Positions 7,666 to 52,921 of a stretch of 64,000 nucleotides of DNA are shown here, in pieces; within the stretch, counting starts at the first letter, position 1, and each line of letters opens with the position of its first letter. The notes under the pieces are model-generated. The model had not been told where the DNA came from. It searched no databases and saw only the letters and a program-made list of their open reading frames with translations. The stretch lies in the NCBI GenBank assembly GCA_963746605.1, contig CAVVCH010000051.1:6136-70135 (forward strand), written 5' to 3'. Source of the DNA: an uncultured delta proteobacterium. GTDB taxonomy: Bacteria > Desulfobacterota > RBG-13-43-22. The position numbers and the translations under genes are program-made.

Positions 7666-7753
7666 CGTCATACCGGACTCGATCCGGTATCCAGGACTTC
7701 CAGAGCTTATCCGAGGCTGGATTCCGGATCGGCTTCGCTTGTCCGGAATGACG
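7666..7753. repeat. CGTCAT...ATGACG long imperfect palindromic (REP-like) element
   Basis: CGTCATACCGGACTCGATCCGGTATCCAG...CTGGATTCCGGATCGGCTTCGCTTGTCCGGAATGACG, with inverted ends and internal hairpins. Confidence 0.75.
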
Positions 7754-7770
7754 AACCTTCGTTAATCCTT

Positions 7771-7810
7771 ATTTTCATGCTTCGTGGGTGCCCGGGCGGG
7801 CATGAGGTTA
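7771..7810 (+). repeat. ~40-bp dispersed repeat, copy 1
   Basis: ATTTTCATGCTTCGTGGGTGCCCGGGCGGGCATGAGGTTA; similar copy on the minus strand at 35113-35153. Confidence 0.7.
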
Positions 7811-8006
7811 ATACGTACGAATGGATGATATCAGAATGGTTCTGCCCTGACAATTCCTGTTTCTGGCCGGATAAAGACTATCCCAAATCCAAAAATATTA
7901 TAGTATAAGAGACTAAAAGGCCGGCTTGTAGATCCGGCTTCGGCGTTGGTTTTTTCCGGATGTTTGACCCCAACCTTAACAATTCGGGAAAGGAGACCGC
8001 ACTCCC

Positions 8007-9005: not shown

Positions 9006-9051
9006 AAGCGATTTCACCGCAGAGACGCAAAGGACGCAGAGATTGCATTAT

Positions 9052-9085
9052 TTTTCATTTGCCGGGAGATGCCGGCAAATGAAAA
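9052..9085. repeat. Perfect 14-bp-stem hairpin between dcyD and the racemase, next to an ACCGCAGAGACGC-type repeat
   Basis: TTTTCATTTGCCGG-GAGATG-CCGGCAAATGAAAA. Confidence 0.6.
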
Positions 9086-9206
9086 GCTCTCAGTCTCCGA
9101 GGGGTGTCCCTCGGTGCTCATTGTTGGGGCGCCGTTAAAGAGGCATCTTCAGGATTTTCGGGCTGAGAAAAAGGGACTTCAAAAAAAACAGGGAGTGGGG
9201 CAGGGG

Positions 9207-9934
9207 ATGAAAGAGAAGATCGTGGGCATCATCGGGGGGCTCGGACCGGAGGCCACCGTGGATCTCATGAGACGGGTTATCCAGGCCACGCCGGCCAGTG
9301 ATGACCAGGACCATATCCGCATGATCGTTGACTGCAATCCCAAGGTCCCTTCACGCATGAAGGCCATCCTGGAAGGGACCGGAGAAGACCCGGCCCCCTA
9401 CCTGGTAATCATGGCCAAAGACCTGGCGGCCTGGGGGGCGGATTTCCTGGCTATCGCCTGCAACACGGCGCATCTCTATCTTGGACCGGATCCAAGAGGC
9501 CGTTCCCATTCCGGTGCTCAACATGATCGATTTAACGGTCGATCAAGGTGGTCTCGGAAAATCCCGTTATCCGGAAAGCGGGTCTGCTGGCCTCTTGGAC
9601 CGTGATCCGGCCCGGACTTTACGAATCCGCCTTTCGAGAAGAGAGGGATCGCTCTGCTCCACCCCTCTCCAGCGCTGCAGGATCGGCTGCTGACCGCCAT
9701 CCGCCGAATTAAGACCGGTCACTACGGGCTGCCGGAAAGGGAGGCGCTCGAGGATGCCGGGAGGGAATCTGGTGGATCAGGGGGCCGCAAGCCCTGATCA
9801 TTGCCTGTACGGAACTCTCGGTGATAGCGGATGGACTCCAGATGAAGACCAGAATCTTCGATGCCTCCCAGGTCCTGGCCGAAGCCATAGTCCAGACGGT
9901 GAAGGGAGGAAACACCGAGACCATTCGATCTTAG
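9207..9934 (+). pseudogene. Aspartate/glutamate racemase family protein, frameshifted as given (several indels 9480-9660)
   Basis: GIIGGLGPEATVD, AIACNTAH (first Cys) and, in a shifted frame, LIIACTELS (second Cys) and FDASQVLAEAIV. Confidence 0.8.
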
Positions 9935-14412: not shown

Positions 14413-14697
14413 ATGCCGGCCTACGTCATCGGACATATCACAGTCAAAGACCCTGAAAAGTGGGCGGAATACCGTGGACAGGTTCCCGCCACCCTTGCGC
14501 CGTGGGGGGGCGAGGTCATCCTTCGGGGGCGGCGGATCACCGTCTTGAGCGGCGAGCACCCCTACAGCGACACGGTGGTGATTCAATTTCCCGACGCGGC
14601 CGCCATCGCCGCATGGTACCGATCGCCGGCCTATCAAGCGCTGATTCCGCTTCGCTCTCAGGCGGCCGAGATGGTCTTGATCAGCTACGAATCGTAG
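14413..14697 (+). CDS. DUF1330 family protein
   Basis: MPAYVIGHITVKDPEKWAEY..WGGEVILRG..VVIQFPD..AWYRSPAYQAL..R; GGAGG RBS upstream. Confidence 0.85.
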   Translation: MPAYVIGHITVKDPEKWAEYRGQVPATLAPWGGEVILRGRRITVLSGEHPYSDTVVIQFPDAAAIAAWYRSPAYQALIPLRSQAAEMVLISYES

Positions 14698-14707
14698 GTG
14701 AGGAGGA

Positions 14708-15553
14708 ATGAACCACCGGGAGGGAACTTTTAAAACGGGGCAGGGGACCAACCTTTTTTACCAGGGCTGGTTGCCGGCAGGGCCGCCTGCCGCCGTATTG
14801 CTGATCGTCCACGGATTAGCCGAGCACAGCGGACGATACGGGAATGTGGTCAATCATTTTGTCCCGCGGGGATATGCTGTGTACGGAATCGATCATCCGG
14901 GGCATGGCCGATCGGATGGCCCCAGGGCTTACGTGGAACGGTTTCAGGATTTTTTGGATCCGCTTCAGGTTTTCCTGGACCGGATACGAGATTGGCAGCC
15001 AGGGACTCCGATTTTTCTGGTTGGGCACAGCCTGGGAGGGCTAATCAGCGCGGCGTACCTGCTCGATCAGCCGGATGAACCGGCCGGGGCCATTCTTTCC
15101 GCTCCGAGCGTCAAAATGCCCGGCTCGGTTTCGACGCCGACCCTCTTGGCCGGTAAAGTGCTTTCCACCCTTCTGCCGAGGCTGGGGCTGGTCCGGCTGG
15201 AGGCGGAAGGGGTAAGCCGGGATCCGGCCGTGGTCCGGGCATACTGCAACGACCCCCTGGTATTCAGGGGAAAGGTCACGGCTCGGTTAGGAACCGAACT
15301 ACTCAAGGCCATGAACCGGGTTTTGTCCGAGGCCCGGAAGATCAGACTGCCGCTTTTGATTCTACAGGGTGCCGCAGACAGACTGGTGGACCCCACGGGT
15401 GCCCAGGTGTTATTTGACCGGGTCGGCTCCCGCGATAAAACCATCAAGATGTACGAGGGCCTTTACCACGAAGTTTTCAATGAGCCGGAACATGACCGGG
15501 TGTTAGGCGATGTGGAAAAATGGTTAGCCGGGCAACTCGAATCGCGACCGTAG
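14708..15553 (+). CDS. Alpha/beta hydrolase, lysophospholipase / monoacylglycerol lipase family
   Basis: VHGLAEHSGRY, DHPGHGRSDG, GHSLGG nucleophile elbow and GLYHEVFNE. Confidence 0.9.
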   Translation: MNHREGTFKTGQGTNLFYQGWLPAGPPAAVLLIVHGLAEHSGRYGNVVNHFVPRGYAVYGIDHPGHGRSDGPRAYVERFQDFLDPLQVFLDRIRDWQPGTPIFLVGHSLGGLISAAYLLDQPDEPAGAILSAPSVKMPGSVSTPTLLAGKVLSTLLPRLGLVRLEAEGVSRDPAVVRAYCNDPLVFRGKVTARLGTELLKAMNRVLSEARKIRLPLLILQGAADRLVDPTGAQVLFDRVGSRDKTIKMYEGLYHEVFNEPEHDRVLGDVEKWLAGQLESRP

Positions 15554-15714
15554 AAAAAAGGTTGTTCTGGCCGGTCCGGAGTCCCTTTGGAAAATCCTTT
15601 CTCCGAAACTTGGTGGCCATACCCGATATGAGGGATACCTACCCAAGAGGACGAAGCCTCACCTTTGATGACCTCGCAAGAAGTCCCGAACTGCCATCCT
15701 GAACCCTTCGCCTG

Positions 15715-15826
15715 TTGTCATCCTGAACGAAGTGAAGGATCTCGTTTTTCAGCTTTGGGTAAACCCCCTGAAGGATCCGTGAACTAGTAAAGAAACAAGA
15801 TTCTTCGCATTCGCTCAGAATGACAA
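15715..15826. repeat. TTGTCATCCTGA...TCAGAATGACAA palindromic (REP-like) element
   Basis: Left arm GTCATCCTGAACGAAGTGAAGGATCTC, right arm AGATTCTTCGCATTCGCTCAGAATGAC; partial extra copy near 15691. Confidence 0.75.
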
Positions 15827-15833
15827 ACTCTCC

Positions 15834-16104
15834 CTACGGGATTTTCCCGAGTCCGTCAAAGAAGAATTCACGATCCCTCATCGGTTGCCAACAGCAACAT
15901 TTCGGCTCCCAGTATGGCTGTTTTTTGCGCCGGGGTAGAAACCGGGTTGTTTTTGAAAATCAGAGGAAGAAAAATAAACGCCGGCAGTGCCGATAGACGC
16001 TGGGAATCGGAATCGGCGGTCCACCCCGGGTTTGCTACCAGGAGGTTGGCTGCTAAAAACCCTAGTAAAAAAAGGTAGAAAAATTTTCTTTTCAGGCGTT
16101 TCAT
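15834..16104 (-). CDS. Small exported hypothetical protein (probable indel near 15878)
   Basis: Basic N-terminus plus hydrophobic signal; FIFLPLIFKN motif; as given it stops at 15868, and one base removed extends it to DEDREFFFDGLGKIP-stop. Confidence 0.45.
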
Positions 16105-16500
16105 GGCCCCAGCACCAATCCGGTTATTTTGCGGCAATCGGCCGCTTGACAACCAATCGGATTATCGATCTGAATTGATATCAAAAAAAATGGTAACGGT
16201 TTTTCCCAGGGCCATCGCGGTATTCAGCAACACCAGGTACCGGTTGGCATTCGCCGTAGTGGTAGCCGTGGTACCAATCTCAATGGCGAAAGATGAAAGA
16301 CCTCCCGGGGGGGTTGCACATGAAACCACAACGCGAGGTACCCCTGGAATGGAATTGCTATCCTGTTCCAACGAGGCCACAGTGTTGACAATGCATGGAA
16401 AAATATCCACGGTCACGGCGCCCAGTGTTCCGACCAAGGGAAGCGATAGAAGGGTAAAGATAAAAAGCAGGGTCCCCGATAAAAATAAGTTTTTCTTCAT
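16101..16500 (-). CDS. Small secreted Cys-containing hypothetical protein (probable indel near 16165)
   Basis: Signal peptide; shifted frame continues DNPIGCQAADCRKITGLVLGP-TGA, whose stop overlaps the ATG of the next gene (ATGA). Confidence 0.55.
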
Positions 16501-16541
16501 AGTCCGGTTTCTCCTTTCGTTAAAGCAACTAAACTCCTGGT

Positions 16542-17483
16542 CTAATTCACCCGCCCCCCGCTTTCCAGGAACTTCACAGCGGAATCGGCGGCCGTGGCCC
16601 CGTCCCCGGCGGCGGTGACGATCTGCCGCAACGTCTTAACCACCACATCCCCGGCGGCAAAAATTCCGGGGATGGAAGTTTCCAGACGAGGGTTGACCTT
16701 GATGAAACCCTCTTCATCCAGGTCCAGCAGTCCGTCGAATAATTCGGAGTTGGGTTTCATGCCGATGCCGACAAATATCCCGTCCGTTTCAAAGACCTGC
16801 TGTTTTCCCGTTTCCTTGTCCTTGAGTTGAAGGGAACGGACCTGTTCCCCTTCGCCCTGAACACCCTCCACCTCCCGGTTCAGGAGGATCCGTATTTTGG
16901 GATTGGTCGCGGCCGCTTCCTGGACGGACTGTTCGGCCCGGAGCTTGGTTCCCTTGTAAATAACGGTCACCTCTTCGGCGTAGCGGGAGACGTACAAGGC
17001 GGCATGCAGGGCCGAATTCCCGCCGCCGATTACGCTGGCCTTGGCTTTTTTCATGGCCTGGAAGACCGGGGCGTCGCAATGGGCGCAATAGTAGATGCCC
17101 CGGCCCCGGTATTCCTTTTCTCCGGGGACATCCATATTGATAGGAGAGGAGCCGGTGGCGATGATCAGCGACCGACCGGTGTATTCCCGCTCGTCGGTGG
17201 AGACCCGGATCCCCTCTCCTGCCCGGGTAATTCGAAGGGCGTTCTTCAGGACCCTTTCCACTCCCAAGACATCCACCTGCCGGATCATGCTCATCATGAG
17301 CATGGCCCCGGAAACCCCGTCGGGGAAACCCGGGTAATTGCCCACATGTTCATAATTCACCGGATTACCGCCGGGGTTTTCCCCCAGGATGAGGGTCTTC
17401 ACCCTGGCCCGGCCGGCATAAAGTCCGGCTGTCAACCCTGCCGGCCCGGATCCCAGAATAATCAGGTCATAATCCTTGTCCAT
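16542..17483 (-). CDS. trxB: Thioredoxin-disulfide reductase
   Basis: GSGPAGLTAG FAD motif, YCAHCD CxxC, GGGNSA NADPH motif, IFAAGDV. Confidence 0.9.
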   Translation of the reverse strand: MDKDYDLIILGSGPAGLTAGLYAGRARVKTLILGENPGGNPVNYEHVGNYPGFPDGVSGAMLMMSMIRQVDVLGVERVLKNALRITRAGEGIRVSTDEREYTGRSLIIATGSSPINMDVPGEKEYRGRGIYYCAHCDAPVFQAMKKAKASVIGGGNSALHAALYVSRYAEEVTVIYKGTKLRAEQSVQEAAATNPKIRILLNREVEGVQGEGEQVRSLQLKDKETGKQQVFETDGIFVGIGMKPNSELFDGLLDLDEEGFIKVNPRLETSIPGIFAAGDVVVKTLRQIVTAAGDGATAADSAVKFLESGGRVN

Positions 17484-17778
17484 AGGGTGCTCCTTCGATT
17501 AATCTCTAATGGGGATCAATTCGCCTACGCCTTCCTGTTTTCGACGATAAAAGTAGTTTAATTATGGTCCTCCCCCTGAAAAAGTCAATCCCCAATTGTG
17601 GCCCTGGGGAGGGGACGCGAAATACCGAACACCTTATAATTCTTGCTAATAAGATAATAATCATGGTAAAGATTTGAACGAGAAAAAAGATTGACACTTT
17701 CGCCTATTCCGATTTAGTTATAAAATAGCTTTTTGAGATTCCGTGGAAGGACCGAAGCTGGATAAAAGAGAGGTGGTT

Positions 17779-19464
17779 ATGTCCAAAATGTTTAAAGACG
17801 ATCAGATTCAAAAATCTGAACAGGGGAAGGTCGCCTGGCAAAAAGAGTTGGACCAGCGTCTGGCCAAGCACCCGGAATGGAAAAAAAGATTCTCCACCGT
17901 CTCGGACCTGGAAATCAAGAATATCTACACCCCGGAAGATATCAAAGACCTGGATTTTGAACAGGACCTGGGCTATCCCTGTTTTTATCCGTACACCCGG
18001 GGCGTTCAGTTGTCCATGTACCGGGGGCGTCTTTGGACCATGCGCATGTTTGCCGGGCTGGGTTCGGCGGAAGACACCAACCGGCGGTTTCATTATCTGG
18101 TGGAACAGGGGCAGACCGGGTTGAGCGTGGCCTTTGACATGCCCACCCTGATGGGCTACGACACCGATTCCCCCAAGGCCCGGGGCGAGATGGGTAAATG
18201 CGGGGTAGCCATCGACACCCTGAAGGACATGGAAATCCTGTTTGACGGACTGCCCATTGACCGCATCACCACTTCCATGACCATCAATCCTCCGGCCTCG
18301 ATTGTCTGGGCCATGTACATCGCCATGGCCGAGAACCGCGGAATCCACCGCAGCAAGATCGGCGGGACCATTCAGAACGATATGCTCAAGGAGTTTGCGG
18401 CGCAGAAGACCTTCATGTGTCCCATTCGTCCCTCCCTGCGACTGGTGACCGACACGGTGGAATTCGGGACCAAAGAAGTCCCCCGCTGGAATACCATCAG
18501 CATCAGCGGGTACCACATCCGGGAAGCAGGGGCCACGGCGGTTCAAGAGTTAGCCTTTACCCTGGCCGATGGACTGGCCTACGTGGAAGATGCCATCAAG
18601 CGGGGCTTGCAGGTGGATGATTTCGCCCCCCGGCTGTCTTTCTTCTTTGACGCCCATATCGATTTTTTTGAAGAGATCGCCAAATTTCGGGCGGCCCGGC
18701 GGATGTGGGCCCGTTTCATGAAGGATCGTTTCAAGGCCCAGAACTGGCGATCCCTGTGGCTCCGATTTCACACCCAGACGGCGGGTTGTTCCCTGACCGC
18801 CCAACAGCCCTATAATAACGTGATACGCACCACCATCGAGGGACTCTCGGCCGTCTTGGGCGGCACCCAGTCCCTGCACACCAATTCCCTGGATGAAGTC
18901 TTGGCCCTGCCCACCGAACAGGCGGCCACCATCGCCCTGCGCACCCAGCAGATCATCGCCGAGGAATCCGGTGTGATCAACACCATCGATCCCCTGGCCG
19001 GCTCCTATTTCATCGAGGCCCTGACCAACGAGATGGAGGAAAAGGCTCTGGAGTACATCCATAAGATTGATGAAATGGGTGGTATGGTCGAGGCCCTGGA
19101 CCGACACTTTCCACAAATGGAGATCGCCGAATCGGCTTACCAGTTTCAGCGCCAGTTGGACCGCCAGGAAAAGATTATGGTGGGGGTCAACCAATATGTG
19201 ACCCAGGATATTCTGAAGCCGGAAGTACTCCGGATCGACCCGGCCCTGGAAGAGACCCAGATCGCCCGGACCAACGAGATCAAAAACAGCCGGAATAACG
19301 TCCGGGTCCGGGAATGTCTGGCTAAGCTGGGGGAGGACTGCGTGAACAACCGCAATGTCATGGAGACGTTGATTGAGGCGGTCAAGGAACACGCCACCCT
19401 CCAGGAATGCTGCGACGTTTACCGCCAGGCGTTCGGGACGTATCGAGACCCGGGGATATTTTAA
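17779..19464 (+). CDS. icmA: B12-dependent acyl-CoA mutase large subunit, probably isobutyryl-CoA mutase
   Basis: YPYTRGV..WTMRMFAG, GLSVAFD, QNDMLKEFAAQ, ISISGYHIREAGA and SLHTNSLDE; Phe and Gln at the specificity positions; no B12 domain. Confidence 0.8.
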   Translation: MSKMFKDDQIQKSEQGKVAWQKELDQRLAKHPEWKKRFSTVSDLEIKNIYTPEDIKDLDFEQDLGYPCFYPYTRGVQLSMYRGRLWTMRMFAGLGSAEDTNRRFHYLVEQGQTGLSVAFDMPTLMGYDTDSPKARGEMGKCGVAIDTLKDMEILFDGLPIDRITTSMTINPPASIVWAMYIAMAENRGIHRSKIGGTIQNDMLKEFAAQKTFMCPIRPSLRLVTDTVEFGTKEVPRWNTISISGYHIREAGATAVQELAFTLADGLAYVEDAIKRGLQVDDFAPRLSFFFDAHIDFFEEIAKFRAARRMWARFMKDRFKAQNWRSLWLRFHTQTAGCSLTAQQPYNNVIRTTIEGLSAVLGGTQSLHTNSLDEVLALPTEQAATIALRTQQIIAEESGVINTIDPLAGSYFIEALTNEMEEKALEYIHKIDEMGGMVEALDRHFPQMEIAESAYQFQRQLDRQEKIMVGVNQYVTQDILKPEVLRIDPALEETQIARTNEIKNSRNNVRVRECLAKLGEDCVNNRNVMETLIEAVKEHATLQECCDVYRQAFGTYRDPGIF

Positions 19465-40933: not shown

Positions 40934-42364
40934 TTATATGCCCAGTTTCCCGGGATTCATAATGTCGTTGGGATCCAGGAGTTTTTTCACCTGCCTCAGC
41001 AGGGAAAGATACCCCGGGTGGGCCCGCTGATTGATCTCCCGGGCAAAGTCCACCGGGGGCTTGTAGGGCATGCCGCCGTGATCCAGATCGACCTTGAGAC
41101 ACTCCACGATGGCCTGTCGGGCGTTTTCCGTTTCCTCGGGACTTTTCTTATTGAAGGGAATCATGGCCCGGAGCATACCGTAGTGGACACCCCGGTACAT
41201 GCTCATGCGAACCGAAGGAGAGAGGTTATGCTCGATCAGGATTTTTTTCCAGTCGTTATAGACCGGGGCCCATTTGTTGGCCGGCGTAAAAGTGCCCGGC
41301 CAGGAAATGCCCGCGCCGCCCTGTTTGCAGTAGTTTTTGGTGGAGCCGACAATTTGGCTGGGTAACTGGGTCCGGGCCCGCAAGGCCTCTTCCGGGTATT
41401 GGGTTACCTGAAGGGAGGTCCCCTTTTTCTTCTCCTCCGCGACCACCGTCTCCCAGATTTCTTCCCGGGCTTCCTTTTCCTTTTCGGTGAAGGAGTTGGT
41501 ATTGGCGAAACTGAACCATTCCGGGGCGGAATCGGGTTTGGGTTTGAAGGGATACGGGATGGGCACCTGGGCCAGCCACCAGGAGACGGCCGTCAGGTCG
41601 TCACAGATCTCATAAGTGCTCAGATTCATCATGTAGGAGACCATGTCTTCCACATTCTCGCAGGAGACGGTGAAGACCTTCAAGACCGGCGGAATGGGAT
41701 GAACGGTGATTCCCAGTTTGGTGACCACGCCGGTGCTTCCCAGCCAGCCTTTGAACAGGCCGTCCAGTTGGGGCATCGGCAGCACGCTGTGCCAGGCCTC
41801 GGCGTTGATGGCGCAGGAACCCACCCGCACCAGCTCGCCGGTGGGCAGGACCACTTCCATGCTGGTAATCTCCTGGCTGTTCAAGCCGTAGCGGGCGTTC
41901 AATCCGCCAATCCCGTGGGAAATGGCGCAGGAGGAAACAGAGGCCGAAGGGGGGCCCACCGGCCAGCCGAAACGCAGGTTATGTTTATAGAGAGCGCTGG
42001 CCAACTGGCCATGGGAGACCCCCGGTTCAATCACGGCATAATGGGATTCGGTATCGATTTTGAGAATCTTATTCATCCGTTTCAGATCCAGAATAATGCC
42101 GCCCCGTTCCGGAATGGTCAGACCCCCGATGTTGGTTCCGGCCGTGTAGGGCACCACGGGGATCTTCTCCCGGTTGGCCAGTTTCAGGACCGCCTGAATC
42201 TGCTCCACGGTGGTGGCCATGACCACATAGTCCGGCAGTTTGGGTTGCACGAAGGACATGTCGTAGGAATAAGCATAACGAATGTGTTTGGCCGCGGTGG
42301 CATTCTTGGGGCCCACGATAGAGGCCAACTCATTTAAAACAGCATCTTTGCTGGTGACATGCAT
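40934..42364 (-). CDS. FAD-binding oxidoreductase (GlcD / D-2-hydroxyacid dehydrogenase, VAO/PCMH family)
   Basis: PYTAGTNIGG, LDLKRMNKIL, VIEPGV, TGVVTKL and C-terminal LDPNDIMNPGK. Confidence 0.85.
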   Translation of the reverse strand: MHVTSKDAVLNELASIVGPKNATAAKHIRYAYSYDMSFVQPKLPDYVVMATTVEQIQAVLKLANREKIPVVPYTAGTNIGGLTIPERGGIILDLKRMNKILKIDTESHYAVIEPGVSHGQLASALYKHNLRFGWPVGPPSASVSSCAISHGIGGLNARYGLNSQEITSMEVVLPTGELVRVGSCAINAEAWHSVLPMPQLDGLFKGWLGSTGVVTKLGITVHPIPPVLKVFTVSCENVEDMVSYMMNLSTYEICDDLTAVSWWLAQVPIPYPFKPKPDSAPEWFSFANTNSFTEKEKEAREEIWETVVAEEKKKGTSLQVTQYPEEALRARTQLPSQIVGSTKNYCKQGGAGISWPGTFTPANKWAPVYNDWKKILIEHNLSPSVRMSMYRGVHYGMLRAMIPFNKKSPEETENARQAIVECLKVDLDHGGMPYKPPVDFAREINQRAHPGYLSLLRQVKKLLDPNDIMNPGKLGI

Positions 42365-42484
42365 AAAATCCTCCTTTGTTTCAGGAATGAAGGCTACGTA
42401 AGCGTCTTTACCAGGGCGGACCCCGGATCGCCTTCCGGGCCGGATGCCCAGTCCAGTCACCCGGGTCCGATGAATAAACAAGGA

Positions 42485-44042: not shown

Positions 44043-44966
44043 TTATTTAATCTCTAACGAACGCTTGGTTATGCCGGTCGGGGGTTGGGAAGCCAGATAC
44101 AGCGGACTGGTCCCCACCCGCTTCAAAATAACCCCCCGGTTTTTCATCAGCGGATCTCCCTCGGCTACCACCCGGGCCCCCGGGTTCAGGAGCAGGTGCC
44201 AGTGACTGGAAGACCAGAACTGGGGGAATTCCTGGGGGTCGAAAGGCGCGGTTTTAGTGACCTCAGCCAGATAGTTGCCGACCTCGAGCAGGTCGTTGCC
44301 CATGGCCACCGCGGCGGCCAGAGGATCTTTCTGAATCATGCATTCCAGGATCAGCCGATGGGATTTGCGGACGCCCTGATAGAAATCGACCCCCAGACGC
44401 AATTCGGTCTTCAGGGAGCTGAGTATGTTGTCCACAAAATCGATGATCAGATTGAGCAGGGTATTGTCCACCATCCGGGCCAGGTAACGGTGAAAGCCGA
44501 TTTCTTTGGAGACCTCGTTCTCGCTTTTGGTGACGGTGCGGCCGATGATCTTTTTGAGGTTGAAGATGTCTTTATCCGTACCCCGGGTGGCGGCAATCCC
44601 GGCCACCGTGGGCTCGATGAGGTAGCGGACCATGGTGATTTCTTTGAGGGAGACTTTCTCGAAGCGCAGGAAATTGATCAGGCTGTTCAGGGTGGTCCGC
44701 ATGTCCACGTCGGCCACAAAGGCGCCGCCCGAAGTCCCTTTGCGGATTTCGATCAGGCCCATGGCTTCCAGGACCCGCAGGGCTTCGCGGAGGGTGGCCT
44801 TGCTTACTCCGAACTGGAGGATCAGTTCTTTTTCTGAAGCCACCCGTTCACCGGGTTTCAGTTGGCCGGAAAGGATGGCGTCCCGGATCTGATCGATGAT
44901 CTGGTCCGAGATCTTACGGTTTTTACTGGCCGCCTGGAACAAGGAGGTCCCTTCCTTAACAATCAT
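44043..44966 (-). CDS. GntR/FadR-family transcriptional regulator
   Basis: LKPGERVASEKELILQFGVSKATLREALRVLEAMGLIEIRKG wHTH followed by an FCD domain. Confidence 0.9.
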   Translation of the reverse strand: MIVKEGTSLFQAASKNRKISDQIIDQIRDAILSGQLKPGERVASEKELILQFGVSKATLREALRVLEAMGLIEIRKGTSGGAFVADVDMRTTLNSLINFLRFEKVSLKEITMVRYLIEPTVAGIAATRGTDKDIFNLKKIIGRTVTKSENEVSKEIGFHRYLARMVDNTLLNLIIDFVDNILSSLKTELRLGVDFYQGVRKSHRLILECMIQKDPLAAAVAMGNDLLEVGNYLAEVTKTAPFDPQEFPQFWSSSHWHLLLNPGARVVAEGDPLMKNRGVILKRVGTSPLYLASQPPTGITKRSLEIK

Positions 44967-45186
44967 CTCCCCGCCCTTGATGGGAGGGGTTAGGGGGGTG
45001 GGTGAACAAGGTTAACTAAAATTTTGGCGCTATCTTAGTCAGAGCCTTTGATTGCTGTCAAGTGAAATATTATAATCATTATATTTTTTATACTATTTTT
45101 GTTTGACATTTATAAACCTCCTTATATATAAGATGGAAATCAATCTGTCGGTCAAAAAGACCGCAAACCGGCAAAGGAGATCAGAC

Positions 45187-45537
45187 ATGGGAGTCAAGAT
45201 CGATCCATTGAAATGCACCGCCTGCATGGCCTGCGAAATGGCCTGCGGATATCATCGGGACGACGCCTTCGCGCTGCTCTCGGCCTGCATCGTCACCTAC
45301 CGGACCAAAGAGAAAAAAGATTATTTCGGAGTGCTATTGAAAGAGGAGGAAAGCCTGGTCATCGCCCGGCCGGAAGGGCTGGAGGTAAAAAAGATCGGTG
45401 AGGTCGATGAAAAGTCCAAGGGCGATGCCTCGGCCAAACCCATGCTGCTTCGTGAACCCTGCGACCTCTGCCAGGACCGGGAGAGCGGCCCCTTGTGCCT
45501 GCAGTTCTGTCCGGTGGACGCCATTTACTTAGATTAA
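45187..45537 (+). CDS. 4Fe-4S dicluster ferredoxin-like protein
   Basis: CTACMACEMAC and CDLC..PLCLQFCP. Confidence 0.8.
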   Translation: MGVKIDPLKCTACMACEMACGYHRDDAFALLSACIVTYRTKEKKDYFGVLLKEEESLVIARPEGLEVKKIGEVDEKSKGDASAKPMLLREPCDLCQDRESGPLCLQFCPVDAIYLD

Positions 45538-45549
45538 AGGAGAGCTCCC

Positions 45550-46857
45550 ATGGAATATCTTTCATCCAATAAAATAGCCGTTGTGGATTTAGGGAAGGCC
45601 GAGGTCGGGGAAGAAGAACTGGAAGACTCCCTGGTTCAGGAAAAGATCGGCGGGGCCGGAATCACCACCGCCTTATACCGGCGTTTCGAAGCCGAGGATC
45701 CCATCGTGATCGGGACCGGGCTGCTGACCGGCACCCTGGTCCCCGGGTCGGCCCTGGGTCTGGTAACGGCGAAAAGTCCCCTGACCGGTAAGCTCGCCCA
45801 CGCCCCCTTGACGTTATACCTGGGGATGGAGCTGAAGTTTTCAGGGTTTGATTATATCGTCATTAAAGGGACTTCGGCCAAGCCGGTGTACCTCTGGCTT
45901 CATGACGGGATTCTGGATATTCAACCGGCTGATGAAATCTGGGGCCAGGACACCTTGGCGGCCACGGATGCCATCCGACTGACCCTGGGCGATGACCTGA
46001 TCCAGGTCCTGACCATCGGCCCGGCCGGCGAAGCGGGGTCTTCCCTGGCCCAGCTTATCGTCAATTACTGGGGCAGCGGGGACCGCTGGGGGTTCGGCGG
46101 GCTGTTCGGTTCAAAAAAGTTGAAAGGGATCGCCGTCCGAGGCATGGGGCTGCTGGAAATTTCCGACCCGGAGGGATTTATTATCCGCTGCCAGTCCCTG
46201 CTTTCCGAGATTAAGCAAGGCTCCTGGGCCGGGAAAAAAGGCCTCCCGGATATGGCGGCCGCCCTGGGGGAGAATGACGTGGCCGACTGGCTGGGGCCTA
46301 TTATCCACCGCCATAAATCCTGTTTTAACACCCCCTATGCCACCAATACCTTTGTTTATCTGGATGAAGACCCCAGGCTCTATAATGAGCCCGATGGGGC
46401 CGATCCCGGGTTTTTAGTCAACGACCTGTACGGACTGTTGGGCTTTAAAAAGATCGGCCTTTCCGCCGTCGATTCTTGCCGTTTGCTGAAATATTGTGCC
46501 CGGTTGGGCCTCGATCCGGCCGCCGTGGCCGAATTGAGCCTGAAGGCCGGCAACCGGGACTTCGAAAGCATCCGGCAATCTTTACCCGGATTACAGGGAA
46601 CCCTGGAATGTGTGGGGCAATCGCCTTTCAGCCCCTGGACCCCGATGAAACCGATCTTTGCCGATTTCGGAGTAACGGCCGACGAGGCCTGGTGGAGACG
46701 CCGGCAGGCCGTGGCCTATATTTTTGGCATTCACCCGATTTTTGCCCTGATGTCCCCCGAGCTGAGCGAGGACGTTCTGTTGGAACTGGCCGGCCTCGGA
46801 ACGGGGATGGAGTTTACGCCGGAGACGCTGGAACAGGTGATAAACGACCTTGGTTAA
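45550..46857 (+). CDS. Aldehyde:ferredoxin oxidoreductase-like protein, short and degenerate
   Basis: AOR N-terminal domain (AKSPLTG, SGFDYIVIKG, IGPAGE, GSKKLKGIAVRG); only 435 aa; the CxxCxxxC position reads SCFNTPYAT. Confidence 0.75.
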   Translation: MEYLSSNKIAVVDLGKAEVGEEELEDSLVQEKIGGAGITTALYRRFEAEDPIVIGTGLLTGTLVPGSALGLVTAKSPLTGKLAHAPLTLYLGMELKFSGFDYIVIKGTSAKPVYLWLHDGILDIQPADEIWGQDTLAATDAIRLTLGDDLIQVLTIGPAGEAGSSLAQLIVNYWGSGDRWGFGGLFGSKKLKGIAVRGMGLLEISDPEGFIIRCQSLLSEIKQGSWAGKKGLPDMAAALGENDVADWLGPIIHRHKSCFNTPYATNTFVYLDEDPRLYNEPDGADPGFLVNDLYGLLGFKKIGLSAVDSCRLLKYCARLGLDPAAVAELSLKAGNRDFESIRQSLPGLQGTLECVGQSPFSPWTPMKPIFADFGVTADEAWWRRRQAVAYIFGIHPIFALMSPELSEDVLLELAGLGTGMEFTPETLEQVINDLG

Positions 46858-46900: not shown

Positions 46901-47054
46901 AAATCCGAATTCGAAGCACGAAATCCGAAACAAATTCGAATAACCGAAATTCAAATGACCGAAACCAGAACCTTTAAGCGCGGGGCATGTTTTGAATTTT
47001 GAAAATTTGATCATTTCGATTTGTTTCGGATTTCGTGCTTCGAGTTTCGAATTT
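46901..47054. repeat. Long inverted repeat of 7-bp units (AAATCCG / TTTCGGA family)
   Basis: AAATCCGAATTCGAAGCACGAAATCCGAAACAAAT...ATTTGTTTCGGATTTCGTGCTTCGAGTTTCGAATTT. Confidence 0.85.
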
Positions 47055-47058: not shown

Positions 47059-48291
47059 ATGTCTCCCTGGATGATTAGGCGGACTACCATCGTGGGGCCT
47101 CATTTGGAAAACCCTTCGATCGCCATCTACACCGGGCACGGCAGTTCCCATTCCTGGCTTTGGTTCGTCGATATCTTCGAGCGGGCGGGCCTGACGAACC
47201 TGGCCTTTTTCGATGAGAAGGACCTCAAGGCCGGGAAGCTGACCGGGAGTCAGGTCCTGGCCGTCTCCGGGGGGGACACCTTCGCCCTGGCCGAAGGCCT
47301 GGGCCGGGAAGGGGCCGCCGCCTTGGAGGCCTGGGTCCGTGGGGGGGGGCTTTATCTCGGCTCCTGCGCCGGCGCCTACCTTCCTTTGCGCTCTTCCAAA
47401 GAACCGCTGGACCTGTTTAACTTCGTGGAAGCCAAAATAAGCAACCTGACCGCCATCCTGCCCACCCCTCAAAAATTCAAAGAAAAGTTCAGCCAGCCTT
47501 ACGGCTGTTCCTTCATCTATCACCCGGTCCGGGAGGCAGTCCGCATCTCCGGCTATGGCCATCCCCCGTTTTCCGGGACAGACGACTTCCCGGTACCCCT
47601 GTACGGAGGCCCGGCCATGATCCCCCGGGGGGAGGTCGAAACCCTGGCCTGGTACAGCGGCTTTACCGAAAAAACGGTCTTTCTGATGGATCCGGAATTG
47701 GCCCGGGAAACCCTGATCGGGAAGTCGGCGGTGATTCGAAAAAGGCTGGGCGCAGGCTCCTTCTATTTGTTCGGCCCCCACCTGGAACATCCCCATTATC
47801 GGAAGGCCAACCAACTGGTCATCGATACGATCCGGTTTGAAAAGAAACCGGACCAAGGGCTGAGGGATTCCGAGTGTGAAAGGGAAGTGATCCTGGATAA
47901 CCGGCGGATCGGGGAATGGCTCCGGGCCCTCAAACGGGAATTGAGCAACGCCCGGATTGTGGTGGCCGGCATCGAAAATGAACCGATTTTCTGGCAAATC
48001 GGTCGCAAGACTTACGAACCCCTCAAAATGCGGGTCTTTCTGGAGGCCCTCTGGAAACGCCTGCCTACGATGGAAAAAGCCGGTCCACTGGTTATTCCCG
48101 GCCGGTGTCGGGGTCTGATCGAAAAGGCCGAGGACCTGACCGGGAAGGTGCGGCGCCTGAAAAATCGATTCGATCGGAAACAGGAGACCGCCCCGCTGGC
48201 GGAAGAGATTTTTACTCTTTTAAAAAGATTGGCTCCGGATTTTCTCACGGTTTATTTTAGCACGAATAAGGCCGTCGGCCATGCGCTGTAA
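47059..48291 (+). CDS. BPL_N-like (class I glutamine-amidotransferase fold) protein with helical C-terminal extension
   Basis: IAIYTGHG, LAVSGGD, GGGLYLGSCAGAY, YGGP and FGPHLEH motifs; start uncertain. Confidence 0.7.
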   Translation: MSPWMIRRTTIVGPHLENPSIAIYTGHGSSHSWLWFVDIFERAGLTNLAFFDEKDLKAGKLTGSQVLAVSGGDTFALAEGLGREGAAALEAWVRGGGLYLGSCAGAYLPLRSSKEPLDLFNFVEAKISNLTAILPTPQKFKEKFSQPYGCSFIYHPVREAVRISGYGHPPFSGTDDFPVPLYGGPAMIPRGEVETLAWYSGFTEKTVFLMDPELARETLIGKSAVIRKRLGAGSFYLFGPHLEHPHYRKANQLVIDTIRFEKKPDQGLRDSECEREVILDNRRIGEWLRALKRELSNARIVVAGIENEPIFWQIGRKTYEPLKMRVFLEALWKRLPTMEKAGPLVIPGRCRGLIEKAEDLTGKVRRLKNRFDRKQETAPLAEEIFTLLKRLAPDFLTVYFSTNKAVGHAL

Positions 48292-49153
48292 CAAAACCCT
48301 GCCGCTGTTTCTGATGGCCCAGTTCCTGATCCTGGGCGGATGTCTGTTGTTGGCCCGGCCGATCAACGCCCGCGAGATTCCTCCCGACTCCTCCTGGTTC
48401 ATCGACCTGAGCCGTTTTTCCCAGTCCGCCCATGGGACCCTGAATTGTGAAGCCTGCCATGGGAACATGAAAGAATCGGGAAAAGCTCACCCGGAGAGCA
48501 ACGATCCTCAATTTCTTCGCCGGGAAGCTACCCGGGTCTACGACTACGGCCGCTGCCGATCCTGTCATCGCCTAGCCTATGAACGCAGCCGCTCCGGGGC
48601 TCATGCCCAGGCCCTGCAGAAGGAAAAGGAAGGCACCGCTTCAAGAAAAGCGGCTGATCCCAAGAAATATCCGGCTCCGACCTGCGGGAATTGTCATTCC
48701 TCCCATTATGAAAAGGCCCATCGATCCCGTCTGGCAATCGGTCGGGCGATGACCGACACCTGCGGGGCCTGCCATCCGGCTCAGGCGGCCTCCTATCTGG
48801 AAAATCCCCATGGTAAAAAGGCCGTCTACCTGGGGAAAGTCAGCTCGGCCTATTGCACCGACTGCCACGGGGCACATTCGTGCCGATCTCTGAAAGATCG
48901 AAAGACCGCCCTGGACGCCTGTCAACGCTGTCATCCTCAGGCCCGGGAGCAGTTGACCGGCTTTGTGATCCACGCCACCGATCAGGGCTTGACCGAAAAA
49001 GACCGGGATAAAAAATACCGGGTCGATCTGATCCGGACGGTGACCCTGGTCATGCTGGTGCTGGTCCTCGGGCTGGTGGTTTTTTTCTATGGGCATAGTT
49101 TTATGTGGCTTCTGCGGGAGCTTCACGAAAAATTGAAAAGGCGTAAATCATGA
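48281..49153 (+). CDS. Hexaheme c-type cytochrome with signal peptide and C-terminal TM helix (CbcL-like c domain)
   Basis: Six CxxCH (CEACH, CRSCH, CGNCH, CGACH, CTDCH, CQRCH); TM ending FFYGHSFMWLLR. Confidence 0.9.
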   Translation: MRCNKTLPLFLMAQFLILGGCLLLARPINAREIPPDSSWFIDLSRFSQSAHGTLNCEACHGNMKESGKAHPESNDPQFLRREATRVYDYGRCRSCHRLAYERSRSGAHAQALQKEKEGTASRKAADPKKYPAPTCGNCHSSHYEKAHRSRLAIGRAMTDTCGACHPAQAASYLENPHGKKAVYLGKVSSAYCTDCHGAHSCRSLKDRKTALDACQRCHPQAREQLTGFVIHATDQGLTEKDRDKKYRVDLIRTVTLVMLVLVLGLVVFFYGHSFMWLLRELHEKLKRRKS

Positions 49154-49851
49154 CCCCGGCTCGACAGGAAAACCTGGAGGTAATTCGTTTCCCGGTTATT
49201 CACCGTCTGCTGCACTGGGTCATCATGGTGGGTTTTATCGGTCTGGCCCTGACCGGCTTTTCCCTGAAGTTCAGTTCATGGACCTGGGCCCAATGGATCG
49301 TTTCCCTGCTGGGCGGTCCCGGCTGGACCGGTTACTGGCACCGCTGCTGGGCGGCCATCACTTACAGCGGCGTGATCGTTCACCTGGGCTGGCTGGTCTA
49401 TTTCAAGACTGTGCTGAAGGGGCGCCTCACCGGCCCGCAATCGGCTTTTCCCCGCGGTCAGGATGTCAAGGACCTGCTGGCGCATATAAAATATTTTCTG
49501 GGGCAAGGACGGCCGCCGCAATTCAATCGCTATGCCTACTGGGAAAAACTGGACTACTGGGCCATGCTGGTGGGCATGAATACCATGGGTCTGACCGGGC
49601 TGGTATTGTGGTTCCCGTTGTTTTTCAGCGGTGGCCTGCCCGGGTATTTTATCAATCTGGCCCGGATACTTCACTGGTACGAAGCCCTGCTGGCCGTGGC
49701 CTTAAAATTCGTGGTCCATGTGGTTACCGCCCATCTGCGTCCGGAAGTTTATCCCCTGGATAAAGCCATCTTTACCGGGAAGACAACGTTGGAGAGGATG
49801 AAACACGAGCATCCAGGGGAATGGGAAGAAGTCATAAAGGGAAGAAACTAA
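49150..49851 (+). CDS. Cytochrome b membrane subunit (FdnI/HyaC-like)
   Basis: RFPVIHRLLHW..LALTG, WHR, FNRYAYWEKLDYW, ILHWYEA..VHV; ATGA overlap with the hexaheme gene. Confidence 0.85.
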   Translation: MTPARQENLEVIRFPVIHRLLHWVIMVGFIGLALTGFSLKFSSWTWAQWIVSLLGGPGWTGYWHRCWAAITYSGVIVHLGWLVYFKTVLKGRLTGPQSAFPRGQDVKDLLAHIKYFLGQGRPPQFNRYAYWEKLDYWAMLVGMNTMGLTGLVLWFPLFFSGGLPGYFINLARILHWYEALLAVALKFVVHVVTAHLRPEVYPLDKAIFTGKTTLERMKHEHPGEWEEVIKGRN

Positions 49852-49853
49852 CC

Positions 49854-51416
49854 ATGGGCTTCTTTAAGCAAAATAGCATTATTCACAATGCCGAAAGGCA
49901 GGGAAAGGCGTCGAAATCGTCATTCCGGCGAAACCTGCCCCGGCAGGTTGTAAGTCGGGGGCCGGAATCCAGGGGCAATCCCCCCCTTGGGCTCCTGCTG
50001 ATCGGCGTTATTCTAGCCGGCATCTTGTGCGCCGGATCCGGCTGGGCGGCGGAGCCGGTTTCCATGCCCCTAACGGTTGAGGGGAAGGAACGGGTTTGTC
50101 TCGATTGCCATCGCCGGCCGAATATCCAGAGCAACGAAGGGGCGTTTACTTCTCAGGCCCTGTGTTTCGAATGCCACGGCCGGGAGGGAATAAAACGAAA
50201 GTGGGGCGAAACCGCCGTTTCTCTAAAGGTAACCCCCGAATCCTTTGCCGGCAACCGTCACCGGCTCGTGGCCTGCATCGCCTGTCATATCGATGTGGCC
50301 CGATCCCCCCATCGGACCCGAGTGGGAGCCCAATGCCTTTCTTGCCACACCGTCCACGGAGAAGGAACCGCCCATGACCCGCATCTCCGGGTGAGCTGTC
50401 AGGCCTGCCACCGGCAGTCACCTGCGGTGACCTTAAATAAAACTACCGACCGGGTGGTCCTCTCCCGGCTTAATGACCAGGGTGCTCCTTTAGCCTTGAC
50501 GGACCACCGGCTGCCGGATACCCGGGATCAGAAATTCTGTGAGCGCTGCCATGTGCCGGGGAACAAGGTCGGGGCGGCCGCGGCGGTGCTGCCCGCCAAA
50601 AGCCTTCTCTGCCTGCCCTGCCACTATGCCCCGATCGCCGTCGGGCATTCTCTGTTCTGGGCGGCCTTGGTTGTTTTTGGCCTGGGTCTTTTGTTGACCG
50701 GGATGTTCTGGATCAGCGGCAGCGTGCAGGGAGAGGAGAAATCGGTCCACCGGAAAATCGCCCTCGGTTCCGAAGCGGCCTGGTCTATCCTGTTCTCCCG
50801 GCAATGCTGGACGATTCTGAAAACGTTTTTCTTGGATGTGCTGCTTCAGCGGAGGATTTTGCAGGAGAGCGTCCGGCGCTGGTTCCTCCATTCCCTGATT
50901 TACTACGCCATCCTGTTCCGGTTCGGACTGGCCCTGTTCACCCATTTCGCCTACTTCTTCAAACCCGGCGGCGCCTTGGCCTACGCCCTGATCGATAAAA
51001 ATCATCCTTTTGTGGCCCTGACGAACGACCTCCTGGGCCTGTTCATCGTCTTGGGCTTGGCGGCCGCGCTCTTCCAGCGATTCGTAGTGAAACCACCCCA
51101 CGTGGTCAGTGAGTGGAAGGACAATTGGGCCCTGGCCATCATCGGAGCCCTGGTTCTAATGGGTTTTTTACTGGAGGGGGCCCGCATTCTAGTTACCCAG
51201 GTCCCGGCCGAAAAGGCGGCCTATTCGTTCGTGGGCTATCTCCTTTCATTGCTCTTGGCCGTTTTTCCGGCGGACTGGCCGATCCTCTATGTCTACTTCT
51301 GGTATGCCCATGCCGTCCTGGGAGCGCTGCTGGTGGCCTACCTCCCCTTCGGGAAATTAAAGCATATTTTCGTGACGCCGCTGAGCCTGGTGTCGCAGTA
51401 TAAAAAGAAGGATTAA
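49854..51416 (+). CDS. Heptaheme cytochrome c fused to a NarI/DsrM-like cytochrome b domain
   Basis: Seven CxxCH (CLDCH, CFECH, CIACH, CLSCH, CQACH, CERCH, CLPCH) followed by TM helices with RRWFLHSLIYY and WYAHAVLGALLVAYLPFGKLKHIF. Confidence 0.85.
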   Translation: MGFFKQNSIIHNAERQGKASKSSFRRNLPRQVVSRGPESRGNPPLGLLLIGVILAGILCAGSGWAAEPVSMPLTVEGKERVCLDCHRRPNIQSNEGAFTSQALCFECHGREGIKRKWGETAVSLKVTPESFAGNRHRLVACIACHIDVARSPHRTRVGAQCLSCHTVHGEGTAHDPHLRVSCQACHRQSPAVTLNKTTDRVVLSRLNDQGAPLALTDHRLPDTRDQKFCERCHVPGNKVGAAAAVLPAKSLLCLPCHYAPIAVGHSLFWAALVVFGLGLLLTGMFWISGSVQGEEKSVHRKIALGSEAAWSILFSRQCWTILKTFFLDVLLQRRILQESVRRWFLHSLIYYAILFRFGLALFTHFAYFFKPGGALAYALIDKNHPFVALTNDLLGLFIVLGLAAALFQRFVVKPPHVVSEWKDNWALAIIGALVLMGFLLEGARILVTQVPAEKAAYSFVGYLLSLLLAVFPADWPILYVYFWYAHAVLGALLVAYLPFGKLKHIFVTPLSLVSQYKKKD

Positions 51417-51532
51417 TTTTTTTTACCGCAGACTCACACGGACAAAGATAGGACCAAAGGCGAATTCCCACCGTACAGCTTGGTCGGTGGCCATAATGAG
51501 CTTTTCTTTATCGTTTGTTGTTAGGTGATATA

Positions 51533-52921
51533 ATGACTGAAGAAGTTCCGGTTGAAACCAGCGTTTCAACAATCCCGCCGGGGCCGCAGCCCTCTGAATC
51601 CGTAGAACCTGAGACGGAAACGCGTCCAGAGCCGACTCGTGAACTCCCCCTTTCCAACCTGTCTGCCGCCCGATTGATCCAGCTTGAGGCCTGCACCCGC
51701 TGCGGGGAATGCCTGAACTGGTGTCCGGTCCACGACCAGGACGCCCGGGAACAGGTCATCCCCCGGAAGAAGATCGCCGATTTCCTGCATATCGTGAAGA
51801 CCCAGCAATCCCTCTTGACTCGGATCATGAGGCAGGAAAAAGTGAGCGATCCGATCAAAAGGCTGTTGGCTACCGTATTCCGCTATCGAGAGATCAATCA
51901 AAACGAAATCGATGATTTTGTTCGCAACTTGTATGAGTGCTCCACCTGCGGGCAGTGCCAGATCGTCTGCCCGGCCAACATCGATACGGTCAACCTCTGG
52001 GAGGATATCCGGCGTCTGGTCGTTTCGGCCGGTTACGGGCCGCTGGAGACGCAGAAGGTGCTGGTCAAAAGCGTCAAGGCCTATGATAACCCCTGGCAAC
52101 AGCCCCGGGCAGCCCGCACCAAATGGGCGCGTCGGGCGCAAAAAGACAATCAGATTGCCGCCCCGCCCCGGGAGATCAAGAAGACCAGGGCCAAAGTCCT
52201 GCTCTGGTTGGGCTGTACGGCGGTCTATGATGTGAACGTGAAGCAGATCGCCATCAGCACCATCAATATCCTCGAAAGCCTGGGGATCGATTACGGCTGC
52301 CTCGGCGGCGACGAGAAGTGCTGCGGCAGCGTGCTCCTGCGTATGGGAGACGCGGAATTCGAACGTATCGCCGGCGACAACATCAAACAGCTTAACGAGC
52401 TGGGCATTCAGACCCTGGTCAGTTCCTGTTCCGGCTGTTTCAAGACCATCAAGGAAGACTATCCCAAGGTGGGCAAGCTGAATTTCGAGGTGCTCCACAC
52501 CGTGGAATTCCTCCGGCGACTGCTGGAGGATAAGAAGCTGCCCTTTGTTCAACCGTTGGAAAGAAAGGTCACCTACCACGATCCCTGCCACCTGGGACGG
52601 GCCAGCGGCGTCTTTGAGGATCCCCGGGTACTGATGAAGGCCATCCCGGGACTGGACTTGATCGAAATGCCCCGGAGCGGCGAATATTCCCGCTGCTGCG
52701 GCGCCGGCGGCGGACTGAAGGCCGGCTATCCGGACATCCAGAACAAGATGGCCCAGGAGCGGGTGCGCGAGGCCGAAGGCACCGGCGCCAGCGAACTGAT
52801 CTCGGCCTGCCCCTTCTGCTATGCCGGGCTCCAGGTGGGGATCAAGGCCCTGGATTCGCCCCTGGTCATGAAAGACCTGAGCTGCCTGGTCGAGGAGGCA
52901 CTGATTAAAAAAGCCGATTAA
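51533..52921 (+). CDS. (Fe-S)-binding CCG-domain protein (HdrD/DsrK/TmcB-like)
   Basis: CTRCGECLNWCP, CSTCGQCQIVCP, KCCGS, YHDPCHLGR and RCCGAGGG. Confidence 0.9.
   Translation: MTEEVPVETSVSTIPPGPQPSESVEPETETRPEPTRELPLSNLSAARLIQLEACTRCGECLNWCPVHDQDAREQVIPRKKIADFLHIVKTQQSLLTRIMRQEKVSDPIKRLLATVFRYREINQNEIDDFVRNLYECSTCGQCQIVCPANIDTVNLWEDIRRLVVSAGYGPLETQKVLVKSVKAYDNPWQQPRAARTKWARRAQKDNQIAAPPREIKKTRAKVLLWLGCTAVYDVNVKQIAISTINILESLGIDYGCLGGDEKCCGSVLLRMGDAEFERIAGDNIKQLNELGIQTLVSSCSGCFKTIKEDYPKVGKLNFEVLHTVEFLRRLLEDKKLPFVQPLERKVTYHDPCHLGRASGVFEDPRVLMKAIPGLDLIEMPRSGEYSRCCGAGGGLKAGYPDIQNKMAQERVREAEGTGASELISACPFCYAGLQVGIKALDSPLVMKDLSCLVEEALIKKAD

Follow-up and report, generated by a model that had tools for sequence, protein, structure and literature searches.

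A compact protein of the aldehyde:ferredoxin oxidoreductase fold, short of most cofactor ligands, in a conserved gene cassette of Thermodesulfobacteriota

A 64,000-nucleotide stretch of DNA from an uncultured delta proteobacterium (GTDB Desulfobacterota, RBG-13-43-22; assembly GCA_963746605.1, contig CAVVCH010000051.1, forward-strand positions 6,136 to 70,135), hereafter the window, encodes an unusually short relative of the tungsten-containing aldehyde:ferredoxin oxidoreductases (AORs). Its gene, referred to here as mini-AOR, occupies positions 45550-46857 (+), begins 12 nt past the stop codon of a ferredoxin gene and specifies 435 amino acids (aa) without interruption, so that the coordinates and the open frame reported in a preliminary description of the locus, made from the DNA letters alone, were right. 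The protein belongs to the AOR family by fold and descent, but it fails the features that define an AOR enzyme, namely the AFOR_C domain, the four cluster cysteines, the pterin and magnesium contacts and the catalytic second shell; judged from its sequence, it would be expected neither to bind tungsten or molybdenum nor to oxidise aldehydes. On balance, and with a confidence only a little better than even, the mini-AOR is regarded here as a non-redox scaffold subunit of a hitherto undescribed quinone-linked redox complex.

A compact branch of the AOR family

Pfam detects the AOR N-terminal domain, AFOR_N, at residues 7-198 (45568-46143, +) with an E value of 3.6e-48 and 164 bits against a cut-off of 29.8 bits, and finds no AFOR_C domain (PF01314/IPR001203) at E values up to 0.01. 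Sequence comparison with known structures is similarly confined to the N-terminal part, only residues 11-244 aligning with the Pyrococcus furiosus AOR (1AOR, E 2e-32), and profile alignment by hhalign against canonical AORs ends at residue 285. Structure prediction carries the relationship further. A model built on only 16 close homologues was too poor to use (pLDDT 53.7), but one based on an alignment of 127 sequences (65 short and 62 canonical) reached pLDDT 96.5 and pTM 0.94. Foldseek retrieves AOR-family structures alone at E values of 0.001 or below, with a TM score of 0.84 for 1AOR on query length, and VIA-align superposes 420 of the 435 residues of the model on 1AOR residues 1-531 (chain 1aor_A; Z 36.0, root-mean-square deviation 2.4 Å). 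BamB, FOR, WOR5, WOR1 and AorB come next, with Z scores of 31-36; the nearest unrelated chain stands at Z 4.4.

Since nearly all of the modelled chain aligns in this way, the core of domains 2 and 3 appears to be retained, and the predicted structure is a compact but whole AOR fold. The structural alignment to the P. furiosus enzyme that the preliminary description had proposed thus corrects part of that description, according to which most of the C-terminal domain was lacking. What is missing is about 209 positions present in the majority of canonical AORs, in stretches of about 15 near canonical residues 256-271, about 20 near 359-379, about 60 near 397-462 (the largest internal gap) and about 12 near 465-474, together with the last 75 or so residues; the absence of an AFOR_C match likewise stands.

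Short size is a property of a family and not of this copy. All 120 of the best homologues are 404-443 aa long and carry PF02730 only, most of them from metagenome-assembled genomes (MAGs) of Thermodesulfobacteriota, and length and motifs are kept across hundreds of homologues, whose sizes run from 427 to 443 aa; the possibility raised earlier, that homologues are full-length and this copy simply truncated, is contradicted. When sequences clustered at 50% identity were searched exhaustively, the best 150 hits comprised approximately 50 short-family representatives (about 390-505 aa, matching end to end), the remainder being canonical AORs of about 600 aa matched over the N-terminal domain alone. 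The mini-AOR shows the hallmarks of this short family: the size class of 390-505 aa, Leu or Ala at the position of P. furiosus (Pf) R76, Asp at position 178 and membership of a separate clade. Mean column identity along the whole protein is 77% for 16 homologues ranging down to 61% identity, and the ratio of nonsynonymous to synonymous substitution rates (dN/dS) is 0.09-0.17 against five orthologues, equal in the N-terminal domain and the C-terminal part. The gene is intact and under strong purifying selection, as the preliminary description had supposed in denying that it was decaying.

A few individual sequences deviate. In P0013, a 79% identical homologue, residues ~175-192 read GERRPLGPRRTVRVEKC where all others have GSGDRWGFGGLFGSKKL, probably a compensated double frameshift or a MAG assembly error, and in three MAG loci (L052, L056, L058) the mini-AOR frame is reduced to 230-281 aa, likely owing to assembly frameshifts or contig problems and not to real truncation. 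The genome of the window itself (G000) contains seven further AOR-family genes (L001-L007), most of them full-length, to which the short gene is an additional, distinct paralogue. One of the seven (L007) lies inside a 958-aa open frame and may be a fused form, and another (L005) is cut by a contig end.

Pterin, magnesium and second-shell positions

For the comparison of cofactor sites, columns conserved in at least 75% of 62 canonical AORs were taken and the short family was read at the same columns; the cofactor positions are thus mapped by alignment. The pterin-phosphate/Mg loop of canonical enzymes, AGRxGxGAVMGSK, is replaced in the mini-AOR by NYWGSGDRWGFGGLFGSK (residues 172-189; 46063-46116, +). 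The sequence alignment sets GSGDRWGFGGLFGSK opposite AAGRGGVGAVMGSK of 1AOR, which bears out the preliminary observation that the GRxGxGAVMGSK-type motif had been substituted. Within this segment the short family has an almost invariant Asp, D178, which is one of its hallmarks; canonical AORs mostly have Gly or Ala there.

The remaining contacts have changed in a similar manner. Pf R76 is replaced by L69, N93 by P86, G95-G96 by T88-L89 and T243 by L232; E311-Y312-E313 correspond to L289-V290-N291, and D338 to A317. Toward the C-terminus, the segment YIFGIHPIF (residues 390-398; 46717-46743, +) stands opposite the canonical DxxG(L/I)C, with Y390 in place of the pterin-binding D489 and H395 in place of the distal cluster cysteine C494. 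The stretches that hold Y427, R-G…H448 and K450 are absent in 100% of short-family sequences. According to a 2025 review, the conserved second shell of the family consists of T243, E313, Y427 and H448, and the Mg ligands are N93/A183 (PMC12096430). In the pterin/Mg set as a whole (R76, N93, GG95-96, D338/D343, D489 and the K450 region), only G341 and D343 of the first DxxGLD motif are kept, as G320 and D322.

These pterin/Mg and second-shell changes are common to the whole short family and are not peculiar to the gene of the window. Because the corresponding positions are substituted or deleted, a catalytic AOR is unlikely, and the pseudoenzyme or non-catalytic subunit listed among the options of the preliminary description is the one favoured here. 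Most replacements at the former cofactor contacts are conserved hydrophobic residues, for which reason the former pterin pocket is read as having probably turned into protein core.

Evolution of the cluster cysteines

Only one of the four [4Fe-4S] ligands is present in the mini-AOR. In the degenerate motif HRHKSCFNTPYATN (residues 253-266; 46306-46347, +), C258 corresponds to the first cysteine of CxxCxxxC, T261 and T265 to the second and third, and the distal cysteine position is taken by H395. The assignment was made by profile-profile alignment (hhalign) against five canonical AORs of the same genome and by MAFFT alignment with 62 canonical AORs, and it upholds the cysteine loss noted at the outset.

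The history of this loss is different from that of the pterin site. The consensus of 54 short-family sequences reads HRxxACFNCPxPCxTF and LGICP, that is, with all four cysteines, and the four-cysteine state is therefore ancestral to the short family. In a tree computed with the ligand columns removed, the short-family sequences group as a single clade (support 100, branch length 0.93) whose deep branches are occupied by four-cysteine members, with at least three independent losses of the ligands. One of these concerns the Thermodesulfobacteriota clade of the gene studied here, whose sister P0125 retains four cysteines; the others concern the P0136/P0137/P0144 group and P0138. The preliminary description had asked whether both the short length and the loss of cysteines are conserved in a clade. 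Short length is, and so is the absence of the second to fourth cysteines in every full-length orthologue of at least 50% identity (50 species-level genomes), which reads C..T...(T/S/A/Y) with His or Asp at the distal position, but the wider short family had four cysteines ancestrally.

Even the residual pair is dispensable. In six orthologues, mostly labelled Desulfarculaceae (L046, L049, L050, L051, L053, L054), C258 is replaced by Asp, Ser, Asn or Ala and H395 by Asp, while P0124 has Asp and Gln at these positions. The gene neighbourhood is unchanged in the six orthologues, which argues that C258 and H395 are not needed for the conserved function.

The conserved gene cassette

The ferredoxin-like protein encoded immediately upstream of the mini-AOR (45187-45537, +; 116 aa, Pfam Fer4 families, with AGGAG preceding the ATG) contains two complete [4Fe-4S] motifs, CxxCxxCxxxC and CxxCx8CxxxCP, separated by an insert of about 70 residues. 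Downstream, at 47059-48291 (+; start at 47059 or 47071), lies a GATase1/S51-like protein recognised by the Pfam families BPL_N and Peptidase_S51. The distribution of these partners was surveyed by tblastn of the neighbouring proteins of the window against 78 loci from other genomes. The ferredoxin begins 363 nt before the mini-AOR start in the window and 340-760 nt upstream in the other loci; the frame of the GATase-like protein is found about 1490-1520 nt past that start in the window, and elsewhere a protein of 400 aa is found 1.1-2.0 kb downstream of it (3.5 kb in two actinobacterial loci). Both flank the mini-AOR in nearly all of ~55 loci, including every locus with sufficient contig extent, and the arrangement is held in distant members: L061-L063 (39-42% identity), the actinobacterial L064/L065 (36-37%) and L073 (29%). 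For the deep four-cysteine branches the neighbourhoods come from a few loci (L064, L065, L073, L081). The conserved core is thus composed of ferredoxin, mini-AOR and the GATase1/S51-like protein.

All eight cysteines of the ferredoxin are 98-100% conserved in 61 orthologues, and this, with the constant upstream position, confirms it as the dedicated partner that it had been taken for. Its few sequence matches in the PDB include small Fe-S subunits known to dock on enzymes of the AOR family, namely AorA (8c0z_C, 9e-5), BamC (4z3w_E, 0.01) and WOR1-S (9mqx_E, 0.03); although the E values are modest, these matches are consistent with descent from a two-subunit WOR. A tblastn search of the flanks of the canonical AOR genes of the same genome with this ferredoxin gave insignificant Fer4-motif matches only.

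The third member of the cassette looks like a competent protein of the Cys-hydrolase or GATase type. An invariant cysteine, the putative nucleophile-elbow residue, lies in the motif GSCAGA (codon 47365-47367). Invariance among 50 orthologues holds for C111, H163, H249 and H252, and in a set of 20 sequences for the Glu that stands between the last two His in an H-x-E-H-P motif. In S51 peptidases of the PepE family, the Ser of the G-x-S-A-G motif is aligned opposite the GSCAGA cysteine, with weak E values (0.05 with a single sequence, 1e-5 with a profile of 20 orthologues). This Ser we take to be the PepE nucleophile.

Beyond the three genes, most loci also encode an HdrD-like protein with Fer4 and CCG domains close to the cassette, and none of the context types inspected with Pfam lacked it. 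A NarI-type cytochrome b is usually attached to the module and a GlcD/GlcF-like flavoenzyme often adjoins it; the other downstream content is variable between loci.

Possible role of the mini-AOR

The following scheme may be proposed for the mini-AOR as a non-redox scaffold. Its branch of the tungsten AOR/WOR family has kept the three-domain fold in compact form and has lost the catalytic second shell, together with those residues and loops by which canonical enzymes bind the tungsten-bis-pyranopterin/Mg cofactor. The ancestral mini-AOR probably still bound a [4Fe-4S] cluster, and the Thermodesulfobacteriota clade later lost the cluster ligands as well. Such a protein, without redox chemistry of its own, could provide a cytoplasmic module with its structural core or with an adaptor, the further parts being the ferredoxin, possibly a cut-down relative of the docking subunits of the WorS/AorA/BamC type, and the GATase1/S51-like Cys protein. 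The HdrD-like CCG protein would wire this module to the NarI-type cytochrome b and the multihaem cytochromes c, and hence to the quinone pool. Electrons would then travel over the ferredoxin clusters, which would connect the CCG protein with the GATase-like subunit or else with an associated dehydrogenase, and would reach the membrane by way of the CCG protein, the mini-AOR being bypassed.

Several points weigh against a scaffold function. Polar residues around the former cofactor sites are conserved (H84, H118, D119, N172, W174, D178, H253, R254, H255, E273, D274), and conservation over the full length would seem to exceed the apparent need of a passive scaffold. In addition, a search for mini-AOR fusions of at least 763 aa turned up none and returned only canonical AFOR_N+AFOR_C fusions, which is weak negative evidence.

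These polar residues lead to the strongest alternative, possible but distinctly on the unlikely side, in which the place of the lost pterin has been reshaped into a new site, either for catalysis or for the binding of a ligand. The mini-AOR would then provide the GATase1/S51-like protein with a partner that is catalytic or binds the substrate, and electrons would be carried by the ferredoxin and the CCG protein. Family-specific and nearly invariant residues do stand at pterin-loop positions: D178 in NYWGSxD, HR(H) before the first cysteine, E273-D274-P275, and D292 beside the position of the lost E313. Overall conservation is very strong, and the C-terminal part has a dN/dS of about 0.1. Nucleophile, His and Glu are apparently all in place in the third partner, and GATase-type enzymes usually operate with a partner subunit. 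However, the former contacts are mostly hydrophobic (L69, L89, L232, L289, V290, Y390), a pattern that points to a filled pocket. There is also no ligand to propose, and the polar residues that come close to invariance across the wide family are limited to D13, T60, E94, K96, D178 and C258. It is tempting to extend this idea, although the extension must be called doubtful, to a new quinone-linked cytoplasmic enzyme composed of the ferredoxin, the mini-AOR, the Cys-hydrolase-fold protein and the HdrD-like CCG protein, in which the emptied pocket would bind a new substrate or cofactor around D178 and HRH. If so, the cluster-containing and cluster-less versions would represent two stages in the repurposing of a fold.

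It is improbable that C258 and H395, with the nearby H253 and H255, bind another metal centre, be it mononuclear (Fe or Zn) or a cluster held in common with a partner, as a relay or a structural metal. The two residues are invariant in 16 close homologues and HRH precedes the cysteine, but the pair is missing from the six mostly Desulfarculaceae-labelled orthologues, with the same neighbourhood, and from P0124; an essential replacement metal site at this place is accordingly disfavoured by an entire subclade that has neither residue.

Still less probable is the carrier or sensor of the preliminary description, a mini-AOR that would bind a metallopterin or a metal-free pterin and carry or sense tungsten/pterin on behalf of the genome's seven canonical AORs. 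In general the AOR fold persists, together with G320 and D322, and all five of the other carrier genomes tested encode canonical AORs (1-15 each). This co-occurrence is uninformative, as such anaerobes all carry many; the residues that would hold the pterin (R76, N93, GG95/96, D489) are substituted family-wide, the loop with RG..H448/K450 is absent, and the genes conserved nearby encode respiratory Fe-S proteins, cytochromes and a hydrolase-fold protein, not functions of cofactor biosynthesis such as moa, moe or tup. Finally, the reading of the gene as a canonical AOR copy that has been truncated or is decaying, which its shortness and the want of canonical motifs could suggest, can be dismissed with near certainty in view of the constant length and motifs of its homologues, the dN/dS of about 0.1 and a synteny held across phyla.

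Relation to known systems

In its homology to the P. furiosus AOR over the N-terminal domain, in the superposition of the whole chain and in the order of its motifs (position of the first cysteine, GLD, position of GxC), the mini-AOR is recognisably an AOR; it differs from that enzyme of about 605 aa in the missing positions, the three absent cysteines, the pterin/Mg contacts, the second shell and AFOR_C. The two-subunit enzymes AorAB (8C0Z), BamBC (4Z3W) and WOR1/WOR5 (L and S subunits) offer a parallel in gene order, an AOR-fold large subunit gene adjoining that of a Fer4 subunit. Their small subunits, however, have three or four clusters where the ferredoxin described here has two, and the mini-AOR is without the active site and, in this clade, without the electron-receiving cluster, while an obligatory GATase1/S51-like partner is added. 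With modules of the HdrED/DsrMK/HmeCD type, which act on CoM-S-S-CoB or DsrC, the locus shares a CCG protein beside the cassette in most cases and usually the NarI-type cytochrome b too, but no CoM-S-S-CoB or DsrC substrate is encoded here, and the ferredoxin, mini-AOR and Cys-hydrolase-fold partners are without a described counterpart.

Within the searchable literature, no description was found of a short, pterin-less or AFOR_N-only branch of AORs, nor of an AOR together with DsrMK or a GATase. A published survey that divided WORs into 92 clades demanded both IPR013983 and IPR001203 (PMC13328260), and proteins with the N-terminal signature only would have escaped such a collection. AORs and WORs are the archetypal tungsten enzymes. 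The short branch is a case of a complex metalloenzyme fold that has outlived, under strong selection, the stepwise loss of both of its cofactors. The intermediate, with the cluster present and the pterin gone, is extant in relatives, thereby providing a natural series for the origin of pseudoenzymes and repurposed folds. In practical terms, mini-AOR genes carry the annotation 'aldehyde:ferredoxin oxidoreductase' in metagenomes, which will inflate the aldehyde- and tungsten-dependent metabolism inferred for MAGs of sulfate reducers and syntrophs. The fixed cassette, in turn, marks what is probably a membrane-linked redox module, uncharacterised so far and common among the Thermodesulfobacteriota.

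Local and wider gene neighbourhood

Between 45187 and 52921 the genes make up a single string in which neighbours overlap or are separated by short junctions. Upstream of it, a divergent GntR/FCD regulator recognised by Pfam (44043-44966, -) is kept in most Thermodesulfobacteriota loci, and the intergenic region between this gene and the ferredoxin contains a candidate sigma-70-like promoter at 45048-45076 (+; TTGATT-17-TATAAT, 10/12 matches), identified by consensus match only. Downstream of the GATase-like gene, the same string continues at 48281-52921 (+) with genes for a hexaheme cytochrome c, a cytochrome of the b561 type, a fusion of a heptaheme cytochrome c with a NarI-type cytochrome b, and the HdrD-like CCG Fe-S protein, as assigned from Pfam, CXXCH counts and transmembrane segments. 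Cytochrome genes do follow the mini-AOR, as first described, but the relation is closer than upstream gene and downstream operon, since stops and starts overlap within a single string.

The sole exception to the tight spacing is a gap of 200 nt after the mini-AOR, occupied at 46901-47053 by a palindromic repeat of about 150 nt with imperfect inverted arms of 51 nt. The contigs of the genome contain 96 matches to this element, which marks it as a dispersed repeat resembling repetitive extragenic palindromes or miniature inverted-repeat transposable elements. It stands outside the conserved cassette, and orthologous loci have a far shorter spacer at this place.

The variable surroundings of the cassette elsewhere are illustrated by four loci. 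L022 has a NarI-like cytochrome b, a PetB/PetD-like cytochrome b and a fusion of cytochrome c, Fer4 and CCG domains, and L015 a PsrB/NrfD/molybdopterin-like trio, a multihaem cytochrome c, a NarI-like cytochrome b, a Fer4 protein and a CCG protein. In L073, two FAD_binding_4 proteins and a CCG protein lie upstream, and a NarI-like cytochrome b and a Fer4-CCG protein downstream. The actinobacterial L064 has an FAD oxidase and a CCG protein upstream and a soluble Fer4-CCG protein encoded between the mini-AOR and the GATase-like gene.

The FAD_binding_4 oxidase beside the cassette is 81% identical between the window (40934-42481) and the Actinobacteria MAGs L064 (4604-6043) and L065, and its CCG partner 65%, values to be compared with 36-37% for the mini-AOR; this suggests either an unusually constrained flavoenzyme or recent lateral transfer of the pair. 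In L064 the cassette is set amid genes (7451-9605 and 14659-19186) for URO-D-family, arginase-family, radical SAM, AIR-synthase-related and thiamine pyrophosphate-dependent proteins, with a PucR-type regulator, a setting unlike the aldehyde dehydrogenase/Liv-transporter island of the window.

Canonical AORs, for their part, occur in metagenomes fused to other enzymes (P0282-P0308), the partners being a class-III aminotransferase (about 1054 aa, annotated as 'putrescine aminotransferase'), a class II aldolase (PF00596), a protein resembling orotidine monophosphate decarboxylase (PF00215) and an Fe-alcohol dehydrogenase; such fusions are possibly a matter of substrate channelling and may hint at the aldehyde handled.

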